Assembly: GCA_030685015.1 (NCBI GenBank)
Contig: JAUXWS010000087.1
Coordinates: 97,684-161,683, forward strand
Length of the DNA: 64,000 bases
DNA from: a bacterium
GTDB taxonomy: Bacteria > CAIWAD01
Direction: 5' to 3'
Position numbers and translations under genes: made by a program. Under the pieces are notes generated by a model. That model saw only the letters and a list, made by a program, of their open reading frames with translations, was not told the origin of the DNA and did not search any database. The number at the start of each line of letters is the position of its first letter. The stretch's first letter is position 1. Below, piece by piece: positions 6,216 through 53,304 of the stretch.

Positions 6216-7816
6216 CGCAACAAACCCGCCACCGTGACCACGGCCAGGGAGGCGACGGCCAAGGCATGGACGCGGTTCTCCTCCAGCGGCGCCAGGCTGG
6301 CCCAGACGCGGTAGACGAAGAAGAAGGCCAGCATCTCCACGCCCAGCAGGTCCGTCGAAAAGGTCGCCTTCAACTGCACAGGCAGATAGAAGAGCAGGAT
6401 CGCCCCGAACACGAGGAAGTACTCGATGGGGTTGGTGACGAGGACGATGCGCCGGAACCAGGCGATGAAACAGAGGCCGCTGTAGACAGTCAGCGCCAGC
6501 CCCAGCCCCAGCCAGGCGCGGGCCACCGGCTGGTCCAGGTCATGGATGCCGAAACCGCTCTGGTGCAGGATGAAGAAGTGGGTGGCCACGATCAGGGCCA
6601 CCGTGATGGAAAGACGGGACTGCCCGGAACTGCGCAGGCGCATCCACGACCAGAAGGCGTAGCCCAAGGCCAGCGTGGCAGGCAGCACGCCGTACTTCAG
6701 GTCGACGCCCCTTACCATGAACAGCTCAAGCCCGAAGAGGAGGACGAGGGCCAGCCCCGTGACGCGCGGCAGTAGGGCGTGAGGGCCCGCTTGGACCCCG
6801 CCGGATGCCACCCGGACGGATTCGGAAGAAGGCCGACGGTGCTCCTGCCACCGCCTGATCAAAAAGATGCCGATCAGCGCCAGGATCAGGCCCAGCCCCA
6901 TCCATCGAAGCTTCAAGGGACTCAGGGCCAGGATGGGAAAAAGCCCCACGAGGCTGGCCAGCATGTACTCCAGGTAGACCACGCTGTCCTGGCGCAGGCC
7001 CAGACCGATCAGAAGGTGATGCAGGTGCTTGCGGTCGGCCAGGAAGGGGGAGCGTCCGGCACTCAGGCGCCGGATGAAGACCTGCAGCGTGTCCAGCATG
7101 GGGATGGCGAAAAAGCAGAGGGCCGTCCAGGGAGGCAGGCGGCCGCCCTCTTGATTGACAAGGAAGACGGCGGCCAGCACGAAGCCGAGCAGGTAGGAGC
7201 CGGCGTCCCCCATGAAGATCGTGGCTGGCCAGGTGTTGACGCGGAGGAAGCCCACGACGCTGGCGATCAGCGCGATGAGCACGGCCACCGTCCGCCATTC
7301 GTCCCCGTGGATCAGGTACATGCCCAGGCAGAGCCCGCCAATGACGACCAGCCCGCCAGCCAGGCCGTCCAGGCCGTCCTGCAGGTTGACGGCGTTGATG
7401 AGGAAGACCATGAAGAGGCCGGCGACCGGCCAGCTGAGCCAGGGGTCGCCGCCGACCAGCGGCAGGTTGATGACGGGACGGGCGATGGCCAGGAAGACCG
7501 CCGCCGTGACCCACTGCAGGCCGAACTTGGTCCAAGGGGAGAGGCCGATGAGGTCATCGGTCAGGCCCACGGCGGAGATGATGAGGGATCCGGCCAGGAT
7601 GGCCCGCACGGCGGGGGTGAAGGGAATGAAGACCAACGAGGTCAAGAGAAAGGCGAAGACGATGAGCACGCCCCCGATGCGCGGAATGGGCACGGTGTGG
7701 ACCTTGCGCCCGTCCGGCTGGTCGACGGCTCCGATGTGGAGGGCGAGACGCTGCAGCAGCGGCATGAGCAGGATCATGATGCTGAGGGCGAACACGCCGA
7801 CGAGGAGATAGGTCAC
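6212..7816 (-). CDS. Polyprenyl-phosphate sugar-1-phosphate transferase (WecA/MraY glycosyltransferase family 4) with a C-terminal membrane extension
   Basis: The N-terminal region has ...HIGAVDQPDGRKVHTVPIPRIGG... and NAVNLQDGLDGLAGG motifs typical of WecA/MraY. The 534-aa product is multi-spanning. Confidence 0.75.
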   Translation of the reverse strand: MTYLLVGVFALSIMILLMPLLQRLALHIGAVDQPDGRKVHTVPIPRIGGVLIVFAFLLTSLVFIPFTPAVRAILAGSLIISAVGLTDDLIGLSPWTKFGLQWVTAAVFLAIARPVINLPLVGGDPWLSWPVAGLFMVFLINAVNLQDGLDGLAGGLVVIGGLCLGMYLIHGDEWRTVAVLIALIASVVGFLRVNTWPATIFMGDAGSYLLGFVLAAVFLVNQEGGRLPPWTALCFFAIPMLDTLQVFIRRLSAGRSPFLADRKHLHHLLIGLGLRQDSVVYLEYMLASLVGLFPILALSPLKLRWMGLGLILALIGIFLIRRWQEHRRPSSESVRVASGGVQAGPHALLPRVTGLALVLLFGLELFMVRGVDLKYGVLPATLALGYAFWSWMRLRSSGQSRLSITVALIVATHFFILHQSGFGIHDLDQPVARAWLGLGLALTVYSGLCFIAWFRRIVLVTNPIEYFLVFGAILLFYLPVQLKATFSTDLLGVEMLAFFFVYRVWASLAPLEENRVHALAVASLAVVTVAGLLR

Positions 7817-7865
7817 CGCCGCTTCCTCGGGTTGGGCGCCGGACCAGGATGGCGGACTCCGGGCC

Positions 7866-10474: not shown

Positions 10475-11506
10475 TCACAACTGCACGAAGCCCACCTTGC
10501 GCTGGACCTTGCCCAACATGCGGCCGGCCCTCCGACGCGCCTTCTCGGCGCCCTGGCGCAGGATCTCCTCCAGCCCCGGCTTGTCGGCCAGCAGCTCCCG
10601 CGTCCGGGTGCGGATGGGCGTCAGCCAGGCCGCCAGCGCCTCGCCCAGCTCCTCCTTGAAAGCGCCGTAGCCCTTGCCGGCGAAGCGCTGCTCCAGGCTG
10701 GCGAAGTCCTCGCCCGTGGCGGCCCGGAAGAGGGTCATCAGGTTGCTCACCCCGGGTCGTCCCTCTGGATCATAGGCGATGCTGTCCCCCGAGTCCGTCA
10801 CCGCCCGGCGGATCTTGCCCTTGATCTCCCCCGGCTCGTCCAGCAGGAAGATGGTGGCGTTGGGGTCGGAATCGGACTTGGACATCTTGGCCGCGGGGTC
10901 CTGCAGGCTCATGATGCGGGCGCCCTCGGCCCGGGGCGGAATCCAGGGCTCGGGCAGGGTGAAAGTCTCGCTGTAGAGATGGTTGAAGCGCTGGGCCAGG
11001 TCGCGCGCCAACTCCAGATGCTGCTTCTGGTCCTCCCCGACGGGAACTTTGTCCGCGTCGTAGAGCAGGATGTCGGCGGCCATCAGCACGGGGTAGGTGA
11101 GCAGGCCCGTGTTGATGTTCTTCTCGTTCTTGCGGGCCTTGTCCTTGAACTGGGTCATGCGCTGCAGCTGGCCCAGGGGTGCGATGCAGCTGAGGATCCA
11201 GGCCAGCTCGCTGTGCTGGGGAACGTGGCTCTGGATGAAGACCGTGTGGCGCGCCGGGTCGATTCCCGCCGCCAGGTAGAGGGCGAGGGCCTCCAGGCAT
11301 TGCCGGCGCAGGTCGGCGGGCTTCTGCCAGACGGTGATGGCGTGCATGTCCACCAGCATGTAGAAGCACTCGTGGTCCTCCTGCAGCCGGACCCAGTTGC
11401 GCATGGCGCCAAGGTAGTTGCCGATCATCAGGCGTCCGCTGGGTTGGATGCCTGACAGGATGACCGGCAGGCGGGGCGGAGTCGGGGCGGGGGTCGATGG
11501 GTCCAT
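10475..11506 (-). CDS. trpS: Tryptophan--tRNA ligase
   Basis: Begins MDPSTPAP...ILSGIQPSGRLMIGNYLGA. It has a class I HIGH-type region, a KMSKS motif (AAKMSKSD) and a typical length of 343 aa. Confidence 0.9.
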   Translation of the reverse strand: MDPSTPAPTPPRLPVILSGIQPSGRLMIGNYLGAMRNWVRLQEDHECFYMLVDMHAITVWQKPADLRRQCLEALALYLAAGIDPARHTVFIQSHVPQHSELAWILSCIAPLGQLQRMTQFKDKARKNEKNINTGLLTYPVLMAADILLYDADKVPVGEDQKQHLELARDLAQRFNHLYSETFTLPEPWIPPRAEGARIMSLQDPAAKMSKSDSDPNATIFLLDEPGEIKGKIRRAVTDSGDSIAYDPEGRPGVSNLMTLFRAATGEDFASLEQRFAGKGYGAFKEELGEALAAWLTPIRTRTRELLADKPGLEEILRQGAEKARRRAGRMLGKVQRKVGFVQL

Positions 11507-11517
11507 GAATCCTCGCT

Positions 11518-12699
11518 TCAACAGGAAGAGCTTAGAATCTCCTTGACGGCGGCCTCGTGGTAATCGTCCATCCCCCAGGCGCCAGCCTGGCGGGCGACGT
11601 TGGCGGCGATCTCGTCGTGCCGCTCCGGACCCACCCCCGCCTCGCCCAGGCGGGTGGGGCTGCCGATCTCCCGGTACCAGGCCTCGATGGCGCCGATGCA
11701 CGCCTGCGCCCCCGACTGGATGGTGGCGGAAGCCGGCAGGCCGAAGACCCTCTCCCCCAGGCGGGCGAGGCGGGCGGCCAGCGGGGCGGCGGCGGGCTGT
11801 TCCAGGCGCCAGCGCAGCCAGCCGGGAAAGAGGGCGGACAGACCGGCGCCATGGGCCAGGTCCGTGATGGCGCTCACCGCATGCTCGATCAGGTGGACGG
11901 GAAAGGGGGCCGGCCCCATCCCGGCGCTGGTGACGCCGTTGAGGGCCATGGTGGCCGTCCACATGAAATCGCCGCGCGCCTCCAGGTCGAGGGGGTCGCG
12001 CCGCAGGCGCGCGCCGCAGTCCACCAGGCAGCGGATGAGGGCCTCCTTCAACTCCAGCTGGACGATGGGCCGCGCCACGGGCGTGTTGGCATAGGGTTCC
12101 ATCACGTGGGCGAAAGCGTCCGACAGGCCGTTGGCCGTCTGCTCCCAGGGCAGGGTGAGGGTGAGGGCGGGGTCGAGCAGGGAGACGCGCGGATGGGTGT
12201 GCAGGCTGGAGAAAAAAGTCTTCTCCCGCGTCTCCTCCCTCGTCACCACGGCGCCGCCGTTCATCTCGCTGCCGGTGGCGGCCAGGGTGAGGACGGCGAC
12301 CAGGGGCAGGGCGGCCTGGACCGTGGCCGCGCCGCTGAAGAAGTCCCACACGTCGTGCTCGGCCAGGGCGCCGGCGGCGATGGCCTTGGCGCTGTCCACC
12401 ACGCTGCCGCCCCCCACCGCCAGCACCAGGTCGACCTGCCGGCGCCGCGCCAGCTCGATGCCGGCCCGCACGTGGAAGAGCACGGGGTTGGGCCGCACCC
12501 CCTCGTGGAGGATGGCCTCCACTCCCGCCGCCGCCAGCTGGGCCTCCACCTGGTCCAGCAGGCCGCTGCGGCGCGCGCTGCCCTGCCCGGCCACGAGCAG
12601 GGCCCGCCGGCCCAGGGCGCGGCAGGCCTCGCCCACCCGGGACGACACGCCGGGGCCGAACTCGATCCGGGTCGGATTCTGGAAGACGAAGGGATTCAT
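11518..12699 (-). CDS. Iron-containing (group III) alcohol dehydrogenase, YqhD/butanol dehydrogenase-like
   Basis: MNPFVFQNPTRIEFGPG..., LAVGGGSVVDSAKAIA and conserved His clusters. 393 aa. Confidence 0.85.
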   Translation of the reverse strand: MNPFVFQNPTRIEFGPGVSSRVGEACRALGRRALLVAGQGSARRSGLLDQVEAQLAAAGVEAILHEGVRPNPVLFHVRAGIELARRRQVDLVLAVGGGSVVDSAKAIAAGALAEHDVWDFFSGAATVQAALPLVAVLTLAATGSEMNGGAVVTREETREKTFFSSLHTHPRVSLLDPALTLTLPWEQTANGLSDAFAHVMEPYANTPVARPIVQLELKEALIRCLVDCGARLRRDPLDLEARGDFMWTATMALNGVTSAGMGPAPFPVHLIEHAVSAITDLAHGAGLSALFPGWLRWRLEQPAAAPLAARLARLGERVFGLPASATIQSGAQACIGAIEAWYREIGSPTRLGEAGVGPERHDEIAANVARQAGAWGMDDYHEAAVKEILSSSC

Positions 12700-39880: not shown

Positions 39881-40744
39881 CTAGGCCGTGATGACGACCT
39901 TGAAGACCAGGTCGGGACGCGTGATGCCCATGGCGCACTCCTGCCAGGACAGGAAGCTCACCTTGAAGCCCTTGCGCTCGGGGTCGACCTTCAGGGGCGT
40001 CCGGATGGCATACTTGCCCACCTCGGCGTCCGGGATGAGGATCACCTCGTCCGTCTTCATGGACGCGCTGTTGATCAGCCCCGCGCCCTGCAGGCGGTTG
40101 AGGATGCCCTTCTCGACGAACTCGCGCCGGGACTCGGGATCCAGGTTGAAGTCCTTCAGGTCGATGACCCGACTGCCACGGATGAGCAGGTAGCGGGGCG
40201 TCAGCTCCATGTCGTTGATGCGGCTGATGGCCGTGAAGAGCGCCGTGTCGGTCAGCTTGCCGCCCGACACCGTGACCACGTTGGTCGTGGGCAGCGTGGC
40301 CGCCGCGGCGGACAAGAGGTCCACGATCTTCGAGTTCAGCTTGTTGCGGATGGCGCTGGCGGCGTCGGTCTGCATGTCGGTGATGGCGCCGATGTTGCCG
40401 TTGGCCAGGTCGCTGATGTCGACCTCGGGGTTGGCGTGGATGCGGAAAATGGGGAAGATCACCTCCGTGTCCGCGTTCACCTCCTGGCGGTGCGGCTGGC
40501 CGCCCACGCCGATGTAGAAGGCACGCAGGGCCGCGCGCTTCTGGTACTTGGCCTCCTGCCCGGCCTTGAGCGTGTGCTCGGTCAGGACCAGGGGCACGAT
40601 GTTCTTGCGCTCGATGTCCATCTTGATCACCGGCGCCACGGCCTCGGCCAGGGCGTAGAGGCCGCTCTCCTTGCTCAAGGACTCGGCCATCAGCCCGGCC
40701 ATGGCAGCCATGAACTGCGGGTCCTTCGTGCTGTTCGTCTTCAC
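39881..40744 (-). CDS. Major capsid protein
   Basis: GTG start preceded by AAGGAG, 287 aa. It lies downstream of the protease/scaffold gene and a DUF2190-like gene, the standard head-module order. Confidence 0.6.
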   Translation of the reverse strand: MKTNSTKDPQFMAAMAGLMAESLSKESGLYALAEAVAPVIKMDIERKNIVPLVLTEHTLKAGQEAKYQKRAALRAFYIGVGGQPHRQEVNADTEVIFPIFRIHANPEVDISDLANGNIGAITDMQTDAASAIRNKLNSKIVDLLSAAAATLPTTNVVTVSGGKLTDTALFTAISRINDMELTPRYLLIRGSRVIDLKDFNLDPESRREFVEKGILNRLQGAGLINSASMKTDEVILIPDAEVGKYAIRTPLKVDPERKGFKVSFLSWQECAMGITRPDLVFKVVITA

Positions 40745-40791
40745 TGTGGAGTTCTCCTTGCTTGGAGCCGGGTGGCTTGCGCCCCAGGCGA

Positions 40792-41187
40792 TTAGGCCAC
40801 CAGGCCGTGATTGGTCCACAGGACGGAGATTTCGGTCCCGTCCACGGCCAGCACGCGGCCCACGATCTTGTTCGTCGCCACCGCCACCTTGAGCTTGGCC
40901 GTGGTGGCATCGAAAGTGAGGTTGTTCCCGACGGCCGGCGTGCCCGAGAACTGGTCCGTCTGGAAGACGAAGGCGCCCGTGTCCACGACGCATGGGGTCG
41001 TCTCCGTCGCGCCCTGCGTCGCGCAGTTCTTGTCCGCGCGCTTCAGGATGCCGACCGGGATGTCGGCGACATTCGACACCACCGTGAACTCGTTGTTGCC
41101 CGTGCTCTTCAGCACCTGACCCGGCGTGCCCGGCCCTTTCAGGACGCCGTCGCCAAGCTCGATGCCGGGGTGGGAGTTGTTGTACAT
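40792..41187 (-). CDS. Head decoration/structural protein (DUF2190-like)
   Basis: 131 aa, beta-rich, located between the scaffold and capsid genes. Confidence 0.45.
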   Translation of the reverse strand: MYNNSHPGIELGDGVLKGPGTPGQVLKSTGNNEFTVVSNVADIPVGILKRADKNCATQGATETTPCVVDTGAFVFQTDQFSGTPAVGNNLTFDATTAKLKVAVATNKIVGRVLAVDGTEISVLWTNHGLVA

Positions 41188-41240
41188 GATCTGCTCCTTC
41201 TAGTTGAGTCCGCCCCGGCATCCCCGGGTCGGGGGTGATG

Positions 41241-43832
41241 CTACTCGCTGATCTCGCCGCGCTCGCTGGCCAGCCGCTCGGCGTAGATGGCCTGGAAGCC
41301 ATCCGTGAGCTTGTCCTTCAGGCCCTTGGGTGCGGGGTCGCCCTCCGTGGCCGGCGTGGTGCTGGCATTGGCGCGCAGCTGCCCCTGGGCGGCGGCGGCG
41401 GCACTCCCCCCGGCGGCGGCCGCGGCCTCCTCCTCGGTGGGCGCTGCCTTGTCGGGCGCGCCTGACTTGTCAGGCAGCGCGCTCCAGGTGTCCTCGATGG
41501 CCTTGCGCGCCTCGTCGGACAGGCCGGCCAGGCGCTCGACCTCGGCCTTCCGCGCGGCATCGTCGGCAAAGGCGCGGCCCTTCTTCTCCATCAGGACGAC
41601 CAGGGCCTCGGCCGCCTTGGTGGCCGCACTCTTGGCCTTCTCGTCCTCGGCTGCCTGGACCTTGACCGTCAGGTCCGTGTTCACGCCTGCCAGCTCCTCG
41701 GCGTGCTTGAGGAGTTCCTCGTGAGTCATGTCCTTCAGGGCCTTCTGGGAGGCCTGCTGGTCCTTGTTCGGGTCCATGTTGCCCGTCTCCTTGCTGATGG
41801 TGGTCAGGATCTGGATCACGCGATCCGCCGTGTCGCTGGCGGCCTGGCGGATCTTCGTGCTGGTGTCCTCCAGCGTGACAGCTTCCGCCGCGAACTGGTC
41901 GACCAGCGTGTTGGTGACGATGTGGAAGGCATCCCAGGCGCGCCAGAGATCGTCCCGGATCTCCTGCTGGATCAGCACCTGACGCACGGTCTCGGGCTTG
42001 GAGCTGCCGACGTCGCCACCGTAGGACACGGCGCGCATCAGGCCGTCCGGCTCATGGGCCATCGACGTGATGTCGGCCTTGGGGTCGGCGGGCTCGTAGC
42101 CCTCCAGTAGACCGGCGCCCGTGAAGGTCACGCCATGGAGGATCTCGTAGACGTCCTTGCCGTCCAGCTGCTGGCCCTTGGACTTTTTCAGGTGCTCGCA
42201 GCGGTCCGCCACGGCCACGTGCGTGTGGCCGCAGATGGAGCATTCGCCCTTGGCGTACGAGCACTCCATCGAGACCTTGGTGATCAGGTCCTCGTGGATG
42301 AGCTTCCGGGCCTTGGCCGCCAGCTCGTCGGAGCCCGTGAAGAGTTTTCCCGCGCAGAGGACGCGCCCGCCCTCGGCGTCGTCGAAGGCCGCCGTCTCCG
42401 TCTTGCCCACGATGTCCTGGGCCTTCTGGCCGTGCTTCAAGTTGATCTTGACGCCGGCTGCACTGGGTGCAGCCGCCTTCAGCTCGTCCACCGTGAAGTG
42501 ATCGCCATTCCGGTTCGTGCCGGCGTGGCAAAGCACGAAGGCGATCTCATGGTCCTCGCCGCCCTCGGACTTTGCCTCCGCCACGGCCACCACCCGGCCG
42601 GCGACCAGGCGCGCCGTCATGCGCGTCCTGTCAGCAGCAGCGGCCGCCATCGCGGCAATGGCCGCGGCGTCCACGGGCTCTTTGTCCTTCACGTCGTCCT
42701 CCTTGGGCTGATCCGGCTTACTCGGCTTGGCCGCTTCGTCCTTCTTCGCCGTCCCCACGAACAGGTACTCCTTGGCCTTGGCCGGATCCTTGTCCCGGTT
42801 CTTGCCGGCCAGACTGCCGTAGGAGAAATCCTTCGTCTCCAGGCGGAACTCGCGCCCGGCCTTCTCGAAGACTTCCTGCAGCTCGGCTTCGCTGGGGTAG
42901 CTGTGGTCGCGGTAGGAGAGGATCCAGTCCGGGATGTGCTCGGCCGCGGCAAAGACCTCCTGGAAGAAAGCCGCGATGTTGGCCTTGGTGAGGTCCCCTT
43001 GGGTCTTTTCCATCCGCGTGACGCTGTCGGCGTTGGGCGTACGACCCTCGCCCTTCACCATCACGGCATCGACGACGTGGTAGTTGGCGCTGTAGTTGGC
43101 GGCGCTGAACTCGGTCACGTAGGGCGGGTCGAAGTAGGCCAGGTCGGCCTTGACCTTGGGCAGGAACTCGCGCACGTCCAGGCGCTGCGCCGTGCAGGCC
43201 GGCCCGTCCAGCACCATCGAGTTCAGGCGCCGGATGACCTCGCCCAGGCGCTTGTGGAACTGCTCGGGGCTGTAGCCGTCCTCGCTGACCTTGCTGGTGG
43301 TGAACTGGGGAAACCAGCCGCGGGCCGAGAGCATCGTGGCCCCCAGGGCCGCCAGGGCCAGGTCCTTCTTGAAACCCTTCAGGGCATCGACGTTTTCCCG
43401 TACCTCGTCGATGACGCCATGGATCTCGGGCTTCCAGAACTTGTCCTTGTAGTGGTCCCGAACGAAGGTGCCGGCCTTCGGGTTGGGCTGGCAGAGGGCG
43501 TCGATCTCCTCGTCCGTCACTTGCTCGGTCTGGTTGACGAGGATGGCCCGGGCGATGTGGTGGGGCCAGTGCAGGCTGTCGTTGGAGTGGACCTGGAAGC
43601 CTTCGCGCTTCAACATGTAGCTCACGCTGCCACCGCCGGCGAAGGCGTCCACCACGGTCTTCACGCCCTCGGGAATCTGCTCGCGGATCCAATCGAGCAG
43701 CTTGCGCTTGTTCCCGATGTACTGGACCCCATGCGTCGGCGCCCCGGCGGCCTGGGAGGTCAGGCTTAACTCGGGGAAGAGGGCGGCTTCGACAGTCAGG
43801 AAGTGCATGGAAATCCCGCGACTTAGGTTCAT
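41241..43832 (-). CDS. Fusion protein: D12-class (Dam-like) N6-adenine DNA methyltransferase + prohead protease-like domain + scaffold-like coiled coil
   Basis: A single 863-aa ORF. aa 35-245 hold YIGNKRKLL, DAFAGGGSV and FDPPY. aa ~405-600 hold GTNRNGDHFT...INLKHGQ...VSMECSY, an HK97/U35-like protease pattern. aa ~600-863 are a charged helical tail. The first ATG may instead be 43808. Confidence 0.7.
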   Translation of the reverse strand: MNLSRGISMHFLTVEAALFPELSLTSQAAGAPTHGVQYIGNKRKLLDWIREQIPEGVKTVVDAFAGGGSVSYMLKREGFQVHSNDSLHWPHHIARAILVNQTEQVTDEEIDALCQPNPKAGTFVRDHYKDKFWKPEIHGVIDEVRENVDALKGFKKDLALAALGATMLSARGWFPQFTTSKVSEDGYSPEQFHKRLGEVIRRLNSMVLDGPACTAQRLDVREFLPKVKADLAYFDPPYVTEFSAANYSANYHVVDAVMVKGEGRTPNADSVTRMEKTQGDLTKANIAAFFQEVFAAAEHIPDWILSYRDHSYPSEAELQEVFEKAGREFRLETKDFSYGSLAGKNRDKDPAKAKEYLFVGTAKKDEAAKPSKPDQPKEDDVKDKEPVDAAAIAAMAAAAADRTRMTARLVAGRVVAVAEAKSEGGEDHEIAFVLCHAGTNRNGDHFTVDELKAAAPSAAGVKINLKHGQKAQDIVGKTETAAFDDAEGGRVLCAGKLFTGSDELAAKARKLIHEDLITKVSMECSYAKGECSICGHTHVAVADRCEHLKKSKGQQLDGKDVYEILHGVTFTGAGLLEGYEPADPKADITSMAHEPDGLMRAVSYGGDVGSSKPETVRQVLIQQEIRDDLWRAWDAFHIVTNTLVDQFAAEAVTLEDTSTKIRQAASDTADRVIQILTTISKETGNMDPNKDQQASQKALKDMTHEELLKHAEELAGVNTDLTVKVQAAEDEKAKSAATKAAEALVVLMEKKGRAFADDAARKAEVERLAGLSDEARKAIEDTWSALPDKSGAPDKAAPTEEEAAAAAGGSAAAAAQGQLRANASTTPATEGDPAPKGLKDKLTDGFQAIYAERLASERGEISE

Positions 43833-44713: not shown

Positions 44714-47700
44714 CTACCTCGCAAACACGACATCCTCGATCCGCCGGCCGTCCGGCAGAACCGTGATGCCGTGCTTCTTGAAAAGGGCGATGACCTTGAC
44801 CCTGCGACCGGCATCGCCGACGACGATGGAATCCATGTTCTCCAAGAGGGGAACCGCTCCCTTGATGATGGTCTCGTTCCCGCAGTAGTGGGGCATCTTC
44901 TTCAGCGTCTCCAGGTCCGAGATCCGGTTCTCGCGGACGAAGTTCCCCACCACCTTGCCGTAGTGGTCACTGTTGTAACTAATCGCGTCGGCACGACGTA
45001 GCAGATCGGGCTTGAAGCGGATGGTGTTGGCCTGCGTGTTCGTGGATCGCATGATGCGCGTGAAGAAGTAGCTCGCCCCGCCCGAATTCATGTCCTGGGA
45101 CGGGCTCATGCCGCCGATGGGCACCCCCGTGCTGAAGCGCTCGGCCGTCGGGATGAAGGACTGGTTGGTCGGCAGCACGGCCTCCAGGAAGTCCTCCACG
45201 GAGCCCTTCGTCATGCCGTGCATGAGCACGTAGCCCTCCATCTCCCTCTCCAGCGTCTCGCGTGACACGTCGAAGCGGACCTGCACGCGCATGCCTGCCG
45301 TGCCACCCTTGCCCGTGGCGACCGCCGCCTGGTGCGTGCCCATCGGGTTGTAGTCGGGCAGCTTGGTCACGTCCTTCACGCCCAGATGGCGACTCCAGAC
45401 CTCACGCCAGATGCGCACGGCGGACTCGGTGGAGGCCTTCTTTGCTTCCTCGGCCGCGGCCAGGAAGGCAGGGCTGTCGTCGATCTTGGCGACGAAAGCG
45501 ACCTTCTGCAGATACATGAGCTCCTCGTCCCAGGGTGTCGAGGGCGCCGTGTCCAAGCCCAGAACCTTCAACCGCTCCATAGCCCGGGCGACGACGCTCT
45601 CGGAGACGCCCTCGCGCACCTTGACGGTCATGCGCCCGTGCATGGCGTAGCTCTTGCCCACCGACTTGCCCGTCCCCTGGAAGGGCTTGTAGACGGCCTC
45701 CACCCCGTCCCCCAGGTCCACATGATATTCGACCAGGTTGTCCATGATGGACGAGTGAAAGCGTGAGAGCGGCACGTGCTCGGCCTCGACCACCAGCTCG
45801 TGCCCCTTGGAGACCACACGATCCTCCGTCCAGCGCGGGCTGGCGGTCACGCGCAGGCCCTTGCCCTTCGCGGGAGCGCCGACGCCCTTTTGCAGGGCCT
45901 TCAGCTCGGCGGCGGAGGGCGCGTACTGCTTCACCAAGGGGAGTTTCGTTGGCGTGCCGGCAGTCGAGGCCTCCACGGCATGCGCGATGTCGTCCAGGGT
46001 CTTCAGATACTGCTGGGCCATGGATTGCTCGACCGCACTGCCAGCCTTTGCCAGCTTCTGCAAGGCTGGCCGCAGATCCTCCGCCGCGCGCAGTTTCGTC
46101 GTGTTGTAGTTCAGGTCACCCACGTGCGTGTTGACGGTCTTGGCGGCCGCCAGGATCGTGTCCCAGAAGCCATCCTCCACCGCCAGCTCCTTCGGGACCT
46201 CGCCCACGACATTCGCCTTCAGGAGTTTGACCAGGCGCTTGTCCGCCTCCTGGCGCAGCCGCAGCTGCAGGATGGTTTGCTTCTCACCGTCCATCCCGAA
46301 GACTTGGCGGACGAGGATGTTCTGGTCCTCGATGTCGCCCTTGTCCACGGCCAGGGAGCGCCCCTGCCAGCCGGACTCGCGGATCGTCTCCACCTCCGCC
46401 TTCAGGTTGATGCGGCTACCCCGCGCCCAGGCCTCGCCCGTCTCTTTGGCTGCGGGCGTTGCCGCCGCCGGCGCCGGCGCGGCGTCCCCGAACCGGAAGA
46501 CCACGGGCTTCCCGGTCCGTGCCGACTCTATCTCGCTGTAGAATCGCTCGAAGTCCGCCTGCAGCGTGTTTTTGCGCAGGGTGGCGGCTTTGAGGAAATC
46601 CTCCAGAGCGCCGGGCTGGCTGGCGAAGCGCCGGCCGGCGTAGGGCATCAGCATCTCGCGGTAGGCCGCATCCGAGATTCCCTGCACGCGGCGCACCCAC
46701 ACGCCCGTCGCCTGCAGGTCCAGTTTCAGTTTCCCATCGCGGTGGGCGCGCAGCAGCTTGTTGTAGATGGGCTCGTCGAAGCGCCCGCCGGCGTTGGGCG
46801 CGTAGTCAACCGAGAGCTTGTCCTTGCCGAAATACTTGTAGAGCTGGCCCTTGTCGATGCCATAGACGCGACCGTCCTGGGCACGCAGGAACTGCTCCGC
46901 GTGACCGTCGTGGTTGGAAATGAGCCAATCGGCCACATGCTCGCGCTGGAGCTGAACCAGGTCCTGCGGATCAATCGTCGTGACGTCGATGCCCTTGTAG
47001 TTGGCCGGCTTCTTCAGCCCCTGCTTCATCTGCTGGATCGATCCCATCCGCATCCGGCCATGCATGTCCTTCAGCTCGATGAAGCGGACCTCGATGGCGT
47101 CCGGATCGATCTCGCGCTGGATCAGGTAGGCCACCTCGTCACCCCAAGCGCGGAAGTCCTCGCTGATGGGCTTGAACAGCCACTTGTCGCCGGCCTGGTC
47201 CGTGTAGAAATACTTGGTGTGCACGCCGCCCAGCTCGCTGGCGTCGCTGTGGAAGGTGAACGGGTTCTTGGCTTTGAGCGCCTCCCAGGCCTCGTCTGCC
47301 TGGCGTGCCTGAACGGCCGGGCTGGCCGCTGGCGTGGGCACAGGCGCCGCGGTTGGCATAGGCGCAGCCTTTGGCGCGGGGGCGGACTTGGGCGCCACTG
47401 GAGCCGGCTTGGGCACAGCGGGCGCTGGTGGGGCCGGCACCGGCACGGCTTTTTTGAGCTTGGCCGCATCCTTGGCAGCGGCTACTTTGGCCGCCACCTG
47501 CTCGGCGATCTTGGGCTGCAGGGGCTTCTGGGTCAGGTAGGCGACGGACTCGGGTTTCGTGAACCACTGGAAGTTCTTGACCTTCGCCGCCTTCAAGACC
47601 TCGCGTAGCACCGACTGACTATTGAGTTCCACCTTGAACGCGAAGACGTCTTGAGCCTTCGACAGGTAACCACCCAGGTCTGCCGCCTGCTGCGGTCCCA

Positions 47701-49231
47701 AGAGCTCCAAGTTTCCGTGGACCTGAGCCAGAAGCTTGTCCATCTGGGCGTGGAAGGCTTCGAACTGAGCCGGGTCCGATTCCAGTGCCTTCAACTGCGC
47801 CAGCCCCGAATGGAAATCCGCCACGGCCTGGTTGGCTTTCGCCAGTTTCGCCGCGGCATCCTCGGCCGCCTGCTTGGCCGCCTTCCCAGCATCCTCGGCC
47901 TGCTTCAGCGCCGCCAGCTTGGCCGCATCCGTGGCGTGGTCGGTCTTGTAAAGGGCCGCCAGCAGCTCGTCCTTGGACTTCAGCGCGCCGATCTTGTACT
48001 GCTTGAACCAGGCGTCCAGCTCATTCATCGTGTGGCCGGAGAGCCACTCCTCGCTCTGCCCGGAGGCCTTCGACAGGAGCGAGATGCGCTCGGCCTTGGT
48101 GCGGCCGATGGACACGCCCTTCTCCTTGGCCACCTCGCGCAGCTGGGCGCTCGTGAGCTTCCCGTAGTCGCCGCTCTGGAGCGCCTCCTTCACCACGACC
48201 TGGCCCAGCGTGTCGCTAACGATCTTGGCCTCCAGGGTCGCCAGGTCGGTGATCTGGGAGAGATCGCCGGCGCCGGGCGTGTGCGTGCAGCGGCAGGCCG
48301 GGTGCAGGGGCTGGCTGGGCAGGCTGGTGAGCGGGTATTCCTTCCCGTCCAGGGGCTCGCACTCCGGGCACATGCGCTCGTCGCCTGCCGTCAGCCAGAA
48401 CACGGACTTGACGCCGAGCTTGGCTTCAAACTTCAGCGCGCCCTGGTTGTAGGCCCGCATCGTCTCGGATCTCGCGATCAGCTCGGCGCGCTGCTGCACG
48501 GTCTTGAAGACCGTCTTGCCCGCCTGGCGGAACTCGTCCGGGTTCTTCACGATCCCGCCGATGCGCCTCGCGATCTTCGCCGGGCCCTCACCCTGGGCGA
48601 TGCCCACTTGCACGGCACCCTTGATACCGGCGACGAGGTCGTCCGAGAGCTTGCCCAGGAGCTGCAGCTGGTAGCCGGAGAGGAAGTCGAAGGCGTCGGC
48701 CGGGAAAAGGGAGAAGGCCCCCTCCGCCAGCGCCTCGCGGCCGGCCTGGTCCAAGGCCTTGTATCCACCGGCCTTCAGGACGCCGAGCTTGGCAAGGGTG
48801 CCGCCGACTCCTGCCTTGGCCATCTCCTTGGTCATGCCCTGGTAGGCCATGGTCAGCTCCTGCTTCAGCTTGGCGCCCGTCGCTGCCAGATTCTTGTCCA
48901 GCGCTTTCAGCCGAGTGAGCTGGACGAGCTTCCCGCCCTGGCGGTCGGGCGCGAACTGGGTGAGGTCGCCCAGACCCAGGATCTCGGCCTTGACGGACTT
49001 GGCCGCCTGGTCCAGGTGCTTCAGGCTGGTGGTGAGGAGGTCGTCCGAGTAGGCGCCGGCCTTGGCCAGGCTTTCCGCCGTGGCCTTTTCGATGGCTTGC
49101 CGCTGGGTGGTGGCGTAGGCGTTCAGGGCCCGGCTGCCGCGCACCAGGAGGAGCGCTTCCGCCTGCAGGTGGAGCGCTCCCACCGGCAGCGGGGCATGCG
49201 GCCGGCCACACGTACAGGTGGCGCTGGGCAT
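44714..49231 (-). CDS. Giant head morphogenesis protein: Mu gpF/SPP1 gp7 domain fused to HeH motifs, a Pro/Ala linker, a kinase-like domain and a PARP-like ADP-ribosyltransferase-like C-terminal domain
   Basis: 1505-aa ORF directly after the portal gene (TGATG overlap). MuF signature ...RSETMRAYNQG...ERMCPECEPLDGKEY...HPACRCT at aa 250-317. See findings for the other domains. Confidence 0.75.
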   Translation of the reverse strand: MPSATCTCGRPHAPLPVGALHLQAEALLLVRGSRALNAYATTQRQAIEKATAESLAKAGAYSDDLLTTSLKHLDQAAKSVKAEILGLGDLTQFAPDRQGGKLVQLTRLKALDKNLAATGAKLKQELTMAYQGMTKEMAKAGVGGTLAKLGVLKAGGYKALDQAGREALAEGAFSLFPADAFDFLSGYQLQLLGKLSDDLVAGIKGAVQVGIAQGEGPAKIARRIGGIVKNPDEFRQAGKTVFKTVQQRAELIARSETMRAYNQGALKFEAKLGVKSVFWLTAGDERMCPECEPLDGKEYPLTSLPSQPLHPACRCTHTPGAGDLSQITDLATLEAKIVSDTLGQVVVKEALQSGDYGKLTSAQLREVAKEKGVSIGRTKAERISLLSKASGQSEEWLSGHTMNELDAWFKQYKIGALKSKDELLAALYKTDHATDAAKLAALKQAEDAGKAAKQAAEDAAAKLAKANQAVADFHSGLAQLKALESDPAQFEAFHAQMDKLLAQVHGNLELLGPQQAADLGGYLSKAQDVFAFKVELNSQSVLREVLKAAKVKNFQWFTKPESVAYLTQKPLQPKIAEQVAAKVAAAKDAAKLKKAVPVPAPPAPAVPKPAPVAPKSAPAPKAAPMPTAAPVPTPAASPAVQARQADEAWEALKAKNPFTFHSDASELGGVHTKYFYTDQAGDKWLFKPISEDFRAWGDEVAYLIQREIDPDAIEVRFIELKDMHGRMRMGSIQQMKQGLKKPANYKGIDVTTIDPQDLVQLQREHVADWLISNHDGHAEQFLRAQDGRVYGIDKGQLYKYFGKDKLSVDYAPNAGGRFDEPIYNKLLRAHRDGKLKLDLQATGVWVRRVQGISDAAYREMLMPYAGRRFASQPGALEDFLKAATLRKNTLQADFERFYSEIESARTGKPVVFRFGDAAPAPAAATPAAKETGEAWARGSRINLKAEVETIRESGWQGRSLAVDKGDIEDQNILVRQVFGMDGEKQTILQLRLRQEADKRLVKLLKANVVGEVPKELAVEDGFWDTILAAAKTVNTHVGDLNYNTTKLRAAEDLRPALQKLAKAGSAVEQSMAQQYLKTLDDIAHAVEASTAGTPTKLPLVKQYAPSAAELKALQKGVGAPAKGKGLRVTASPRWTEDRVVSKGHELVVEAEHVPLSRFHSSIMDNLVEYHVDLGDGVEAVYKPFQGTGKSVGKSYAMHGRMTVKVREGVSESVVARAMERLKVLGLDTAPSTPWDEELMYLQKVAFVAKIDDSPAFLAAAEEAKKASTESAVRIWREVWSRHLGVKDVTKLPDYNPMGTHQAAVATGKGGTAGMRVQVRFDVSRETLEREMEGYVLMHGMTKGSVEDFLEAVLPTNQSFIPTAERFSTGVPIGGMSPSQDMNSGGASYFFTRIMRSTNTQANTIRFKPDLLRRADAISYNSDHYGKVVGNFVRENRISDLETLKKMPHYCGNETIIKGAVPLLENMDSIVVGDAGRRVKVIALFKKHGITVLPDGRRIEDVVFAR

Positions 49232-50745
49232 CAGGCGGCCTGGGCGGCTTCAGCCTTGGCGAGGCTCTCCTGCACCAGGATCTGGGCGCGCTGCAGGAGC
49301 AGCTGGTCCACCTGGTCGTAGAGGGCCGCCACGTCGCCCGTCTGGCCGTCCGGCGCGCCCTCCGTGGGCTTGGCGTCCGGCGCGCCCTTCAGCCGCTCGG
49401 CCAGGTTGAGCAGGTAGAAGACCTGGTCGTTCTGCAGCATGCCTTGCTGGGCCAGGCCCACGATGTCGCCAGGGGACAGTGGCGCGATCACCTGCTTCGT
49501 CTCGCGCTTGGTCTGGGCCTGCTCGATGTCGGGCGAGAGGCCCATCATCGCCTGCAGGCTGCGCACGCTGATCAGGCCGCGGTCGTAGAGGTCCACCAGC
49601 ACCTTGCGCTGGTCGGCGCCGGCCGAGAGGTCGATCTCGGGGAAGGCGATGTGCAGGGTCTCGCCCTCTTTCCCGCGCATGGCCAGCCAGTCATCCAGCA
49701 CCCACTGCAGCATCTCGCGCGCCGTGTCGCGCAGGTCCGCCAGCATGAGCTGGATCTTGGCGAAGCCCAGGCTGGCGGTTGAAAAGTTCGCTCCATCCCC
49801 GGAGACTAGGGCGCGCGTGAACCCCATGGCGACGATGACGTCGCTCTTGGCCTCCTTCACCTTTTCCTCGGTCTTGAGCGTCTCGCCCTCGGCGCCGTAG
49901 GTGTCGATGGTCACGTAGAAGGGCACGACCGCGCCCTGGCGGGCCGTCATGGCGTCGAAGATCTTCTTGATGTCCTTCAGCATGGAAGGCTTGGGCATGA
50001 CGACGGTCTTGCCGAACTGGCCGCCCACCTTGATCAGCCGCACAGGCATGGCCCATCGCTTGGCGATGGCGCGCTCGGCACGCCGGTAGTCGCGCAGGAG
50101 CTCGATGGACTCGAAGGCCGGCAGCACCATGCTGGTGCCGTGGTCGGCGAAGTCCGGCGCGTCCCACATCCAGCGCCGGAACTGGGGCAGGGCCACGTCC
50201 TGATGGCCTGTGGGGTTGCCCGAGGTGTCCAGCGTGAAGGAGCGCACCTTCACCACGGTGCCGTCCTGGACCGTCGTCTCCAGGAGGAGCGGGTTCAGGG
50301 CCTTCACCTTCCTAAAGTCCTGGTAGAGCGGCGCGCCGTCCTGGGTCGTGTCCTTCTTCTCGCCGCCGTAGACCTTGAACGCCGCCGCTTCACCCTTGGT
50401 CAAGAGCTGCAAGAGCTGGTCCTTCAACCAGCGCTTCAGGCAGAGGCGCTTCTTCAGCTCGTCGACCGCCTTCTGCAGCTCGTCACTGGACGCCAGGACG
50501 GTGAAGTCCTCACCCACCGCCAGCGTGCGCCAGGCATTGATGCAGTTGTTGACGATGGGTTCCTGCTGGTAGTACTCCCAGGCCTTGGCGCCCCGGTCCG
50601 CCCAGGCCTGGGCGATGCCGTCGTTCTCCGTCTCGCTGGCGAAGGGGTCCAGCGTGGCGGCCTGGGCCTGCATCTCATCGCCCACCAGCAGCACGCCGCC
50701 CGCGCGCGGCGCGCGGTTGAAGATCCCGGATCCAAGCAGGTTCAT
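49231..50745 (-). CDS. Portal protein
   Basis: 504 aa, between the large terminase and the MuF-like gene. The acidic C-terminus is typical of portals. Confidence 0.75.
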   Translation of the reverse strand: MNLLGSGIFNRAPRAGGVLLVGDEMQAQAATLDPFASETENDGIAQAWADRGAKAWEYYQQEPIVNNCINAWRTLAVGEDFTVLASSDELQKAVDELKKRLCLKRWLKDQLLQLLTKGEAAAFKVYGGEKKDTTQDGAPLYQDFRKVKALNPLLLETTVQDGTVVKVRSFTLDTSGNPTGHQDVALPQFRRWMWDAPDFADHGTSMVLPAFESIELLRDYRRAERAIAKRWAMPVRLIKVGGQFGKTVVMPKPSMLKDIKKIFDAMTARQGAVVPFYVTIDTYGAEGETLKTEEKVKEAKSDVIVAMGFTRALVSGDGANFSTASLGFAKIQLMLADLRDTAREMLQWVLDDWLAMRGKEGETLHIAFPEIDLSAGADQRKVLVDLYDRGLISVRSLQAMMGLSPDIEQAQTKRETKQVIAPLSPGDIVGLAQQGMLQNDQVFYLLNLAERLKGAPDAKPTEGAPDGQTGDVAALYDQVDQLLLQRAQILVQESLAKAEAAQAA

Positions 50746-50757
50746 GGTTCCCCCTCG

Positions 50758-52344
50758 CTACTCGAACACGCTGTCCGTCAGCAGGGGCATGACGAACTCC
50801 GCGTCCAGGCTACCCCCCTCGTCCGTGAGCTGCTTCAGGTGCTCGCGCTCCTTGCGCAAGACGGCCGTGCGCGTGGAGTCGATGATGTGGTCGTTGCCCT
50901 TGGAGTAGATCAGGCGGCCCATCTGCGTCTGGCTGTAGGTGTGCGTGCAGAACTGGTCCTCCCAGTCGAGGTCCACGTCGCCGGCGGGAAAGAGCAGGGT
51001 GCGCGCCGCCAGGCGGCCGTTGATCAGGCTGGTCATGTATTCCTTGATGCGCTGGACCTTGGGCCGGCCCTGCGGATCGTAGGACGTGGTCAGGCTGCCG
51101 CCGAAGTCGTAGGTCTCCAGCCGGAAGGCGAACTGGTGGCCCTCGTAGCGGTCCTCGGTGGTGAGGATGTGCTCGACGGCCAGGCCATTGGACCCGGCGT
51201 CGAAGCCCAGGCCGGCGAAGTCGAAGTGGTCGTCAAGGATGGCGATGATCGCCGCCTGGAAGGTGTAGGGCATATGCTCGTTGTGGACGCGCAAGACAGG
51301 CACCAGGCGCCCGCGTTCGTCCTCCAGCCAGACCGTCAGCTCGCTGGGGTCGTTGGTGTAGCCCAGGTCGCCGCCCATCCAATACGTGCCACGCGCCTCG
51401 TCCTGCAAATCAAGCAGAGATTCCAGCCGGCTGAAGGCCTCGTCCACCGAGTGGATGGCGCTGAATTCCTCACCGTCGATCCGCACCACGCGGTAGACCT
51501 TTTCCAGCTTCCGCTGGCAATCCCGGAACTGACGCACGTTGAAGGCCGAATATGACGGCGCGCCATGCTCGCCGGCCACCTCGTGCTGGAAGCCCGCCGT
51601 GTCCTTCCCGCCGTAGAACTTGGCCTCGCCCTCGGTGTCGGCCTGGCACCAACCCGGCACGATCCAGCTCGGCCACTTGTAGATCCTCCAGCCGCTGGCC
51701 GGCTGGGTGATGCGGTAGTAGGTCGTGTTCCTCAGGCCGTTGGGGTTGGAGTAGCAGCGCATCTGGCCGCCGCGGTTGAGCACTCTTCGGAGTGCGCGCC
51801 AAGCGGGCTCGGGGTACCAGGCGGCCTCGTCCACCAGCACGCGGTCGCAGTGCAGGGAGCGCACGCTCTTGCCCGTCGGGCCCGCCGGCCGGAAATAGAT
51901 GATCGTGCCGTTCTTCCACGTGATCTGGTAGTAGGGCTTGCGCGTGATGCGGTGCCGGCCGTTCGCATCGACGGCCACCATCTCCAGCAGGAACTCGCTG
52001 TTCTGCAGGTGGGCCTCGACCTCCTCGATGATCTTGTTCACATGGCCGTCGTTGGGCGCTGTCACCAGCATGCGCCCGTTCCGGGCGGTCACGCCGTAGT
52101 GCAGGACCTGCACGACGATGTCCACGGTCTTGCCCACCGCACGCCCATCCTGGTGGGCGATCTGCAGGGCGGAATCCCGCACGTCCTCCACCTGGTGCGG
52201 CCAGAGGGCCATGGGCCGCCCCGACTCCGGGCCGTCGAGCTGGGAGAGGAAGCCGGCGGAAAAGGCGACCGGGTCCAGCAGCACCTGAACGAAGGAGATC
52301 TCGTCCTGGGAGAGCTTGGCCGGATGAGGTTTACGAATCGTCAT
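50758..52344 (-). CDS. Terminase large subunit
   Basis: Walker A-like QDGRAVGKT, Walker B RVLVDEAAW and a C-terminal nuclease-type region. 528 aa. It is the first gene of the late operon. Confidence 0.85.
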   Translation of the reverse strand: MTIRKPHPAKLSQDEISFVQVLLDPVAFSAGFLSQLDGPESGRPMALWPHQVEDVRDSALQIAHQDGRAVGKTVDIVVQVLHYGVTARNGRMLVTAPNDGHVNKIIEEVEAHLQNSEFLLEMVAVDANGRHRITRKPYYQITWKNGTIIYFRPAGPTGKSVRSLHCDRVLVDEAAWYPEPAWRALRRVLNRGGQMRCYSNPNGLRNTTYYRITQPASGWRIYKWPSWIVPGWCQADTEGEAKFYGGKDTAGFQHEVAGEHGAPSYSAFNVRQFRDCQRKLEKVYRVVRIDGEEFSAIHSVDEAFSRLESLLDLQDEARGTYWMGGDLGYTNDPSELTVWLEDERGRLVPVLRVHNEHMPYTFQAAIIAILDDHFDFAGLGFDAGSNGLAVEHILTTEDRYEGHQFAFRLETYDFGGSLTTSYDPQGRPKVQRIKEYMTSLINGRLAARTLLFPAGDVDLDWEDQFCTHTYSQTQMGRLIYSKGNDHIIDSTRTAVLRKEREHLKQLTDEGGSLDAEFVMPLLTDSVFE

Positions 52345-52461
52345 CTATCTGATTCTCAAGGTGTTCCGACTTGACTTCCGGGAGGGCCTTGTGCAGACTG
52401 ATGTCCGAGAATGAACGGGCGAGCTTATCCCCGCCAGTCACACCCCAGCGCGAGAGGACCC

Positions 52462-53304
52462 ATGCGGTCACAGATCCCAGCCTTTGCCGAACACCTGGCG
52501 GCCCGGCAGCTTGCCCTTGGCACTATCACGCCCTACCTGTCCGAGCTGCGCCGCTTTGCCGCCTTCCTGGAAGCGGAGGGCGTTGCCTTCGATGGACTTT
52601 CCATCACGCAGGCCACACGCTACTTCGTCCGAGAGGGAAGGTCAAGTCTGACCACGCGCCGGGCCCTGACCATCCTGAACCAGTTCCTGACCTGGGCCAA
52701 GCACCCACTGGCGCCTGAGCTCGGCGCCATCCGCCTGCCCCGCGCGCACCAAGCTGCCCCCGACTACCTGAGCGAGGTCGAGGAGAAGGCGCTGCGCAAG
52801 GCCCTGAAGGCGCGCACGGACGTCCGAGACCAGCCCCGGGACCGGGCGCTCTTCTGCCTGCTGCTGGACACGGGGATTCGCATCTCCGAAGCCGCTGGGC
52901 TGACCGTGGGCGACGTGGAGCTGGATGAGAAGACGATCCGGCTGGTCACCAAGGGCGACAAGCGCCGCGTGCGCTTCCTACCCGTGGAGACGCGAGACCT
53001 GCTACGGCCGCTGATGGCCGGCCAGCCGGCGGAGAGCGCCGTGTTTCGCACCCGGACCGGGCGCGCCGTCAGCGATCGGCACATCCGCCGCCTGCTCGAC
53101 TCCTGGGCCAAGGCCGCCGGGATCGAGCGGTTCATCCATCCGCACGCCCTCCGGCACACCTTCGCCACCAGCCTGCTGAAGAAGACCGGCAACCTGCGCC
53201 TGGTCCAGCTCGCCCTGGACCACGAGAGCCCCAAGACGACGGCCATCTACGCCCACGTGGCCGACGAGGAACTTCGGGCCGCCATCGAAGGTCGATGCAA
53301 GTGA
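52462..53304 (+). CDS. Tyrosine recombinase/integrase, XerC/XerD-like
   Basis: ATG preceded by AGAGGA. It has an N-terminal SAM-like domain, and catalytic residues in ...RDRALFCLLLDTGIRISE..., HPHALRHTFAT and TAIYAHV. Confidence 0.85.
   Translation: MRSQIPAFAEHLAARQLALGTITPYLSELRRFAAFLEAEGVAFDGLSITQATRYFVREGRSSLTTRRALTILNQFLTWAKHPLAPELGAIRLPRAHQAAPDYLSEVEEKALRKALKARTDVRDQPRDRALFCLLLDTGIRISEAAGLTVGDVELDEKTIRLVTKGDKRRVRFLPVETRDLLRPLMAGQPAESAVFRTRTGRAVSDRHIRRLLDSWAKAAGIERFIHPHALRHTFATSLLKKTGNLRLVQLALDHESPKTTAIYAHVADEELRAAIEGRCK

Follow-up and report, generated by a model that had tools for sequence, protein, structure and literature searches.

Why should a gene that begins like that of a minor head protein of a tailed phage run on far beyond its head-protein part, and what might the additional protein do? 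This question is raised by a gene of contig JAUXWS010000087.1 (assembly GCA_030685015.1), which encodes a protein of 1505 amino acids (aa) and lies in a 64,000-nucleotide stretch of a bacterium of the lineage CAIWAD01; we refer to the whole of this stretch as the window. The original prediction, made from the letters of the DNA, described the product as a MuF/gp7-family head protein carrying kinase-like and PARP-like ADP-ribosyltransferase (ART)-like domains, and as a candidate for an injected multi-effector. Our analysis supports this overall interpretation, and each of the domain assignments that was tested held up. The reading that we favour, with a probability of about 0.6, is that of a minor head protein of a temperate tailed phage, extended to a five-part injected cargo protein. 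Its parts would be MuF, SAP-like nucleic-acid-binding motifs, a linker, a HipA/PI3K-like kinase and a module consisting of a conserved region, here called MID, and a DarT-like ART.

Domains of the 1505-aa protein

The 1505-aa open reading frame (ORF) is a real gene, as a search with aa 641-1505 as the query returned 106 relatives, many of them full-length homologues with 30-88% identity; the best match among GTDB representative genomes is 54% identical. All eleven motifs quoted in the original prediction were recovered with the correct residue and nucleotide positions. The numbering of the catalytic residues required one correction: the kinase-loop Asp is D775 (in N773-H774-D775-G-H777) and not D773, whereas the other motif positions stand.

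The N-terminal region is that of a MuF/SPP1 gp7 head protein, in agreement with the signature noticed earlier. It exceeds the curated thresholds of Pfam PF04233 (Phage_Mu_F, 50.6 bits versus a cut-off of 29.6) and of TIGR01641 (SPP1 gp7, 50.0 bits versus 39.65), matches many PHROG head-morphogenesis families, and is encoded directly after the terminase and portal genes.

The kinase-like domain was modelled with AlphaFold (AF2) from a 22-sequence alignment, with a predicted local distance difference test (pLDDT) score of 94.7 and a predicted template modelling (pTM) score of 0.91. Foldseek comparison of this model with the PDB gave 775 matches at E<=1e-3, the top 50 of which were all protein or lipid kinases with probabilities of 0.99-1.00. 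The best query template modelling (TM) scores were obtained for the Golgi casein kinase Fam20 (0.50) and PI3K (0.48). The fold is bilobal, with a predicted helical C-lobe. Among sequence profiles the nearest is Pfam HipA_C (PF07804), matched by 21 of the 22 family members (best E 8.9e-8), followed by PI3_PI4_kinase (four members), while ABC1 and Fam20C each matched two. The original prediction had placed this region among APH/PI3-4K/HipA-type kinases and had proposed a structural search; that search found a kinase fold, and the profiles point to the same class.

The predicted catalytic residues are almost invariant among 151 relatives (K687 in 150, N773 in 149, D775 and D793 in all 151). K687 is predicted to be the ATP-binding Lys, D775 the catalytic-loop Asp, and D793 the metal-binding Asp in 'IDKGQ', the equivalent of the DFG motif. 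Judging from the model and from these residues, aa 645-912 probably form a divergent, active atypical kinase of the HipA/PI3-4K-like branch. Other virion-associated proteins carry this kinase domain, too. It is fused to bona fide ADPrib_exo_Tox/ART domains in three homologues, i.e. P0100, P0103 (which also has MuF) and P0104, whose gene follows an SPP1-type portal gene. The 996-aa protein P0101 (locus L166, 5001-7991) contains two copies of it and a C-terminal SLT lysozyme domain; on its 129-kb contig, the P0101 gene is flanked by very large genes, which encode 1195 aa and 2950 aa. This setting suggests that tail or ejection proteins may carry the kinase as well.

The C-terminal ~580 residues were modelled from a 25-sequence alignment (pLDDT 87.2, pTM 0.78). 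The top match of the ART-like domain in the PDB was Thermus DarT in complex with carba-NAD+ and single-stranded DNA (7omy), with a probability of 0.99, a target-normalised TM-score of 0.53 over 221 columns and a marginal E-value of 0.031. The second match, the ART-fold enzyme OspC3, had a probability of 0.21, and no other lay above 0.25. In the viral library BFVD, three giant-virus proteins of ~200 aa were matched with a probability of 1.00 and TM-scores of 0.48-0.56, and the matches also included phage polyvalent-type proteins, one of them named 'minor capsid protein'.

In the model, H1338 ends a strand (1334-1339), Y1388 starts another (1388-1395) and E1453 starts a third (1453-1457), so the three residues take the canonical beta1, beta3 and beta5 places of the H-Y-E triad. 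Of 215 relatives, 211 share H1338, 212 share Y1388 (the other three have Phe) and all share E1453. Conservation in these relatives extends to R1319, D1321, a basic residue at 1365, S1376, D1380, G1384-G1385, R1392, D1415, D1422, R1436 and R1496. The evidence that aa 1290-1505 adopt an ART fold of the H-Y-E (PARP/diphtheria/DarT-like) type is moderately strong and comes from the model. The earlier ART-like assignment, for which a Foldseek search had likewise been proposed, is thus sustained at the level of the fold, DarT being nearest and the triad conserved.

Two other identities were considered for the C-terminus and set aside. An R-S-E type of ART was conceivable, as R1319, S1376 and E1453 are also invariant; it was rejected because H1338 and Y1388 occupy the canonical beta1 and beta3 positions, and R1319 and S1376 do not. 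Ct_MAD or MuF-C/PBECR describe the C-terminal region of phage Mu gpF (PMC5512222), and nothing related to them was matched here.

Between MuF and the kinase, the original prediction had noticed two helix-extended-helix motifs. The first gains support from the homologues P0054 and P0047, as aa 359-386 align with segments of these proteins that pass the Pfam SAP and Rho_N cut-offs, while SAP matches of the 1505-aa protein itself are weak (ku70 SAP region, E 0.44); the second is a weak, degenerate repeat. The Pro/Ala linker (aa 596-640) described earlier is indeed 69% Pro+Ala. A comparable stretch is present in 7 of 155 homologues and is confined to close relatives of the 1505-aa protein.

At the sequence level, Phage_Mu_F was the sole significant Pfam match of the protein, and a PADLOC scan gave no match. 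Searches of PDB sequences with the whole protein and with the kinase, aa 925-1505 and ART-like profiles yielded only low-complexity or designed-protein noise, as did searches with two divergent single ART-like domains, apart from one non-significant match to the catalytic loop of Fam20B.

Distribution of the MID and ART-like unit

The region that separates the kinase from the ART-like domain, MID, is itself strongly conserved, and its invariant polar residues include E968, Y1075, E1237 and Y1240. In Pfam, NCBIfam and PHROGs its sole family match is phrog_6577, which has no assigned function, and Foldseek comparison with the PDB returned only low-probability matches to four-helix bundles. MID and the ART-like domain together, i.e. 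the C-terminal 580 residues, constitute one conserved unit, which the original prediction had partly overlooked.

This unit is widespread. With a cut-off of E<=1e-3, a profile search with the ART-like domain retrieved representatives of at least 2000 clusters formed at 50% identity; with E<=1e-10 the number was 1235. The domain is C-terminal in nearly all of these proteins, most of which have 1000-3200 aa. When the domain profiles built in this study were mapped onto 141 new representatives, MID preceded the ART-like domain in 133. Seven of the eight proteins without it are of fragment size (177-304 aa) and one has 1989 aa. The kinase was present in 62 of the 141; at least one protein without the HipA-like kinase (P0143) bears a Zeta-toxin kinase instead. 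The order MUF-SAP-KIN-MID-ARTL, i.e. that of the window, was found in all 54 of the closest IMG/VR contigs with enough upstream sequence, as a single ORF in 51 of them. The architecture is therefore stable and widespread rather than a fusion peculiar to one protein.

Matching stretches number at least 140 in the species-representative genomes of GTDB and at least 203 in contigs of IMG/VR. The phyla and classes concerned include Armatimonadota, Desulfobacterota, Acidobacteriota, Verrucomicrobiota, Planctomycetota, Gammaproteobacteria, Chloroflexota and Nitrospirota, among others. Cultured strains were also matched, among them Desulfosarcina alkanivorans PL12, Ectothiorhodospira shaposhnikovii DSM 243 and Syntrophus buswellii DM-2, whose loci are probable prophages. 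Among 50,697 GenBank phage records, a single one, that of Pseudanabaena phage Pan1, contains the module: its gp15, a 927-aa 'head morphogenesis protein', has a reduced MID and the ART-like domain, and no kinase. No mass-spectrometry evidence for gp15 in virions was found in the available text and supplement of the Pan1 paper. The family carries no functional annotation, its members being labelled only 'minor head protein'.

The prophage head module and its small genes

The features of the window that are discussed here are collected in Table 1. The gene order is terminase, portal, the 1505-aa gene, two small ORFs (d1 and d2), a D12 methyltransferase fusion and the major capsid protein, i.e. 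the 1505-aa gene belongs to the head module of a prophage. Three related loci (L001, L002 and L164) likewise have their terminase, portal, MuF-cargo and major capsid genes in this order. In two of these (L001 and L002, relatives with 35-40% identity) the MuF-cargo gene is also followed by two small ORFs and a D12 methyltransferase fusion. The G+C content of the window is about 0.67 and drops to 0.54-0.61 past 52 kb, which, together with the integrase gene beside the terminase gene, suggests a prophage boundary there.

Table 1. Coordinates in the window of the 1505-aa gene, its parts and its neighbours.
Feature	Position	Strand	Remarks
Tyrosine integrase	52411-53304	plus	just beyond terminase
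Large terminase (TerL)	50758-52344		
Portal gene	49231-50745		adjoins the 1505-aa gene
1505-aa gene, complete	44714..49231	minus	ATG overlaps stop codon of portal gene; full-length homologues
MuF/SPP1 gp7 head-protein region (N-terminal), aa 1-335	48227..49231	minus	Phage_Mu_F core aa 203-316
SAP/Rho_N-like helix-extended-helix motif 1, aa 361-386	48074..48151	minus	alignment to homologues P0054, P0047
Degenerate second SAP-like motif, aa 403-427	47951..48025	minus	sequence pattern, weak internal similarity
Ala-rich segment, aa 430-595 (coiled coil in the original prediction), then Pro/Ala linker, aa 596-640	47312..47944	minus	not conserved family-wide
HipA/PI3K-like atypical kinase domain, aa 645-912	46496..47299	minus	predicted catalytic residues K687, N773, D775, Q780, D793
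MID, conserved multi-subdomain region, aa ~943-1289	45365..46405	minus	with ART-like domain in nearly every non-fragment relative
DarT/PARP-like ART-like domain, aa 1290-1505	44717..45364	minus	H1338, Y1388, E1453; further invariant R1319, K/R1365, S1376, D1380, R1392, D1415, D1422, R1436
d1, ~166 aa	44212..44712	minus	ATG 1 nucleotide past stop codon of the 1505-aa gene
d2, ~104 aa	43901..44215	minus	GTG start overlaps d1 stop (GTGA); AGGAG upstream
D12 DNA methyltransferase fusion	41241-43832	minus	
Major capsid protein	39881-41302		
Antisense ORF, 610 aa	45776..47608	plus	over the 1505-aa gene
Antisense ORF, 556 aa	47651..49321	plus	over the 1505-aa gene

The ORFs d1 and d2 are translationally coupled. 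Their recurrence had been overlooked in the original prediction. Of 83 related loci, 75 have a d2-like ORF at a constant spacing behind the ART-like domain, and 34 of them yielded a d1-like ORF; d2 is the best conserved neighbour. Neither of them belongs to a Pfam or PHROG family or has a named homologue, and all 48 homologues of d2 are unnamed or hypothetical proteins without a Pfam domain. Beside the distant kinase-less members Pan1 gp15 and P0106, d1 and d2 were not clearly detectable.

One of the related loci is informative about the boundaries within the cargo protein. In L002 (1525-5870) a separate 289-aa MuF gene lies directly upstream of a gene for a 1158-aa SAP-kinase-MID-ART protein; the last base of the former is the first base of the latter, and the 1158-aa protein starts at the SAP region. 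This arrangement is a gene fission or fusion at a module boundary, and the boundary after MuF is therefore genuine.

The product of the D12 fusion gene has 863 aa. Its D12 N6-adenine methyltransferase domain spans aa 38-249, and its long C-terminal part is rich in Ala and Glu and is not of the methyltransferase type. In L001 and L002, too, the place between the MuF and capsid genes is taken by methyltransferase fusions (777 and 1160 aa). The 863-aa protein may represent a methylase that is packaged in the head or fused to a scaffold. In relatives, further conflict-type genes lie closely downstream of the cassette: L001 encodes a Fic domain protein (11384-11980) and L002 a protein of the pP_pnuc_1 nuclease family (6963-7847). 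The two long plus-strand ORFs that lie antisense to the 1505-aa gene are probably shadow ORFs, which are expected in DNA with a G+C content of 64-67%.

Candidate functions and relation to known effectors

Under the favoured reading, i.e. that of a head-packaged cargo protein, the MuF part would bind the portal during head assembly, so that a few copies of the protein are packaged, and on infection the protein would leave the head along with the DNA. In the new host, the kinase would phosphorylate a target using ATP, and the ART-like domain would ADP-ribosylate a target with NAD+, maybe a nucleic acid, as does its closest structural relative DarT. Jointly, the two domains would modify the host early in infection. 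In view of the SAP motifs and the likeness to DarT, a nucleic acid is a plausible target. The small proteins d1 and d2 might be partners of the cargo, e.g. an inhibitor, a chaperone or an immunity protein. What the analysis itself establishes is the identity of the domains by fold and profile, the conservation of residues of catalytic type, the place of the gene in the head module and an architecture that is constant across phyla; packaging, ejection, both activities and the targets are inferred, the idea of an injected multi-effector being drawn from the MuF context.

Several observations weigh against this reading. The 1505-aa protein itself scores only 18 bits (E 0.0025) with HipA_C, below the gathering score of 30.5 bits; given this score and the 21 matching members, it is best regarded as a divergent HipA_C relative and not as a curated member. 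None of the ART sequence profiles (PARP, ADPrib_exo_Tox, ART-PolyVal, DarT) was matched significantly, hence the ART assignment is one of fold and is not proven, and the structural match to DarT is marginal by its E-value. Moreover, as MuF is a separate gene in some relatives, a covalent linkage to MuF is not required.

A more specific version of the favoured reading can be put forward tentatively. MID and the ART-like domain might represent a new family of DarT-like enzymes that spans phyla, is delivered by virions and ADP-ribosylates DNA or RNA of the host or the phage rather than protein, with a co-delivered HipA-like kinase and under the control of d1 and d2.

MuF-fused toxins, ARTs among them, are known (PMC5576092, PMC9503650), and another explanation to be weighed is that the protein is a MuF polymorphic toxin as described by Jamet et al. 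Its C-terminal enzymes would then inhibit growth and serve the competition of lysogens with non-lysogens or bias the choice between lysis and lysogeny, with d1 and/or d2 conferring immunity. The locus resembles such toxins in its N-terminal MuF/gp7 part, in its position beside the portal gene of a temperate phage, here a prophage with an integrase, and in its C-terminal enzymatic cargo that includes an ART, followed by small ORFs (PMC5576092, PMC9503650); this pattern is seen in 89% of MuF toxin genes (PMC5576092). HipA and DarT are, in addition, both toxins of toxin-antitoxin systems (PMC9967889). However, the C-termini of polymorphic toxins vary, whereas the cargo described here, ~860 aa in length, is not polymorphic and its C-terminal module is stable across phyla. 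It also differs from them in combining a HipA-like kinase with an obligatory MID and a DarT-like ART that Pfam ART models miss. Neither d1 nor d2 could be recognised as having an immunity or macrodomain fold or as belonging to such a family, and the conservation of d2 exceeds what is usual for immunity proteins. We consider this explanation unlikely.

Still more doubtful is an action of the enzymes within the producing cell or on the phage's own genome instead of on the next host, e.g. the placing of a DarT-like anti-restriction mark on phage DNA during or shortly before packaging, in concert with the D12 methyltransferase. Such a role would suit the nearest structural relative, which is an ART of DNA bases, the SAP/Rho_N nucleic-acid-binding motifs on the same polypeptide, and the D12 fusion gene found between cargo and capsid genes in the three loci examined. 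On the other hand, no ADP-ribose-removing enzyme was noticed nearby and the kinase would be left without an obvious role. We know of no phage DNA that is ADP-ribosylated in this way.

A purely structural role of the C-terminal 860 residues in assembly, e.g. as a head-internal scaffold or an ejection conduit with kinase-like and ART-like folds devoid of catalysis, would fit the structural roles of MuF/gp7 proteins, the frequency of pseudokinases and inactive ART folds, and the lack of a curated enzyme family above threshold, but it is equally improbable, as the K/D/D and H/Y/E positions are near-invariant in 151-215 relatives from many phyla, as are many charged residues, and such near-invariance of canonical catalytic positions would not be expected if the domains served structure alone.

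The favoured reading, a packaged cargo with two enzymes, places the 1505-aa protein within the known class of MuF-fused and polyvalent effectors. Polyvalent virion proteins, known from phages and conjugative elements, pair kinases with ARTs of the H-Y-[ED] type, both being common components (PMC5512222; Iyer et al. 2017), and the 1505-aa protein is similar in uniting several effector domains in one virion-associated polypeptide. The kinases differ: that of the polyvalent proteins has no C-terminal subdomain and carries an insert between the catalytic His and Asp (PMC5512222), whereas here H774 and D775 are adjacent and a C-lobe is predicted. A further difference is that, among Pfam families, Phage_Mu_F alone reached significance here.

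With DarT, the ssDNA thymidine ADP-ribosyltransferase of DarTG, the ART-like domain shares the order of the key residues, as H13, R51, Y71 and E160 of DarT (PMC9967889) parallel H1338, K/R1365, Y1388 and E1453, by order only and not by structural alignment. In contrast, similarity in sequence is not significant (Pfam DarT, PF14487, gave one weak match among 25 relatives, E 0.024), no DarG-like macrodomain partner is present, and DarT is a free toxin, whereas the domain studied here is fused to MID, the kinase and MuF. Similarly, the kinase shares with HipA and PI3-4 kinases the catalytic loop D-G-H-x-x-Q/N and a protein-kinase-like fold; unlike HipA, it has no detectable HipA N-terminal domain, and no HipB-like antitoxin was recognised in the neighbouring genes that were scanned. 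Unlike HipA-family and PI3-4 kinases, it resides in virion proteins.

T4 Alt is an ART that is packaged in the head, is injected with the DNA and modifies host proteins (PMC5512222). It belongs to the R-S-E clade, has neither a MuF domain nor a kinase, and was not among the structural matches in BFVD. What is new with respect to the known class is the HipA-like kinase, the DarT-like ART missed by profile libraries, the obligatory MID and a dedicated pair of small partner genes.

Enzymes that are packaged in the head belong to the earliest phage proteins in the host cytoplasm, and few of them, including T4 Alt and the MuF-fused EFV toxin, have been characterised. The family described here offers testable catalytic residues and culturable sources, i.e. 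phage Pan1, D. alkanivorans PL12, E. shaposhnikovii DSM 243 and S. buswellii DM-2. If both domains are active, the family would provide a common injected protein in which a kinase and a DarT-like ART are joined, and it would add to the ART superfamily a branch that had so far escaped notice. If, furthermore, the ART-like domain does modify nucleic acids, the cassette would be a widespread and so far unrecognised instrument of host takeover or counter-defence in temperate phages.

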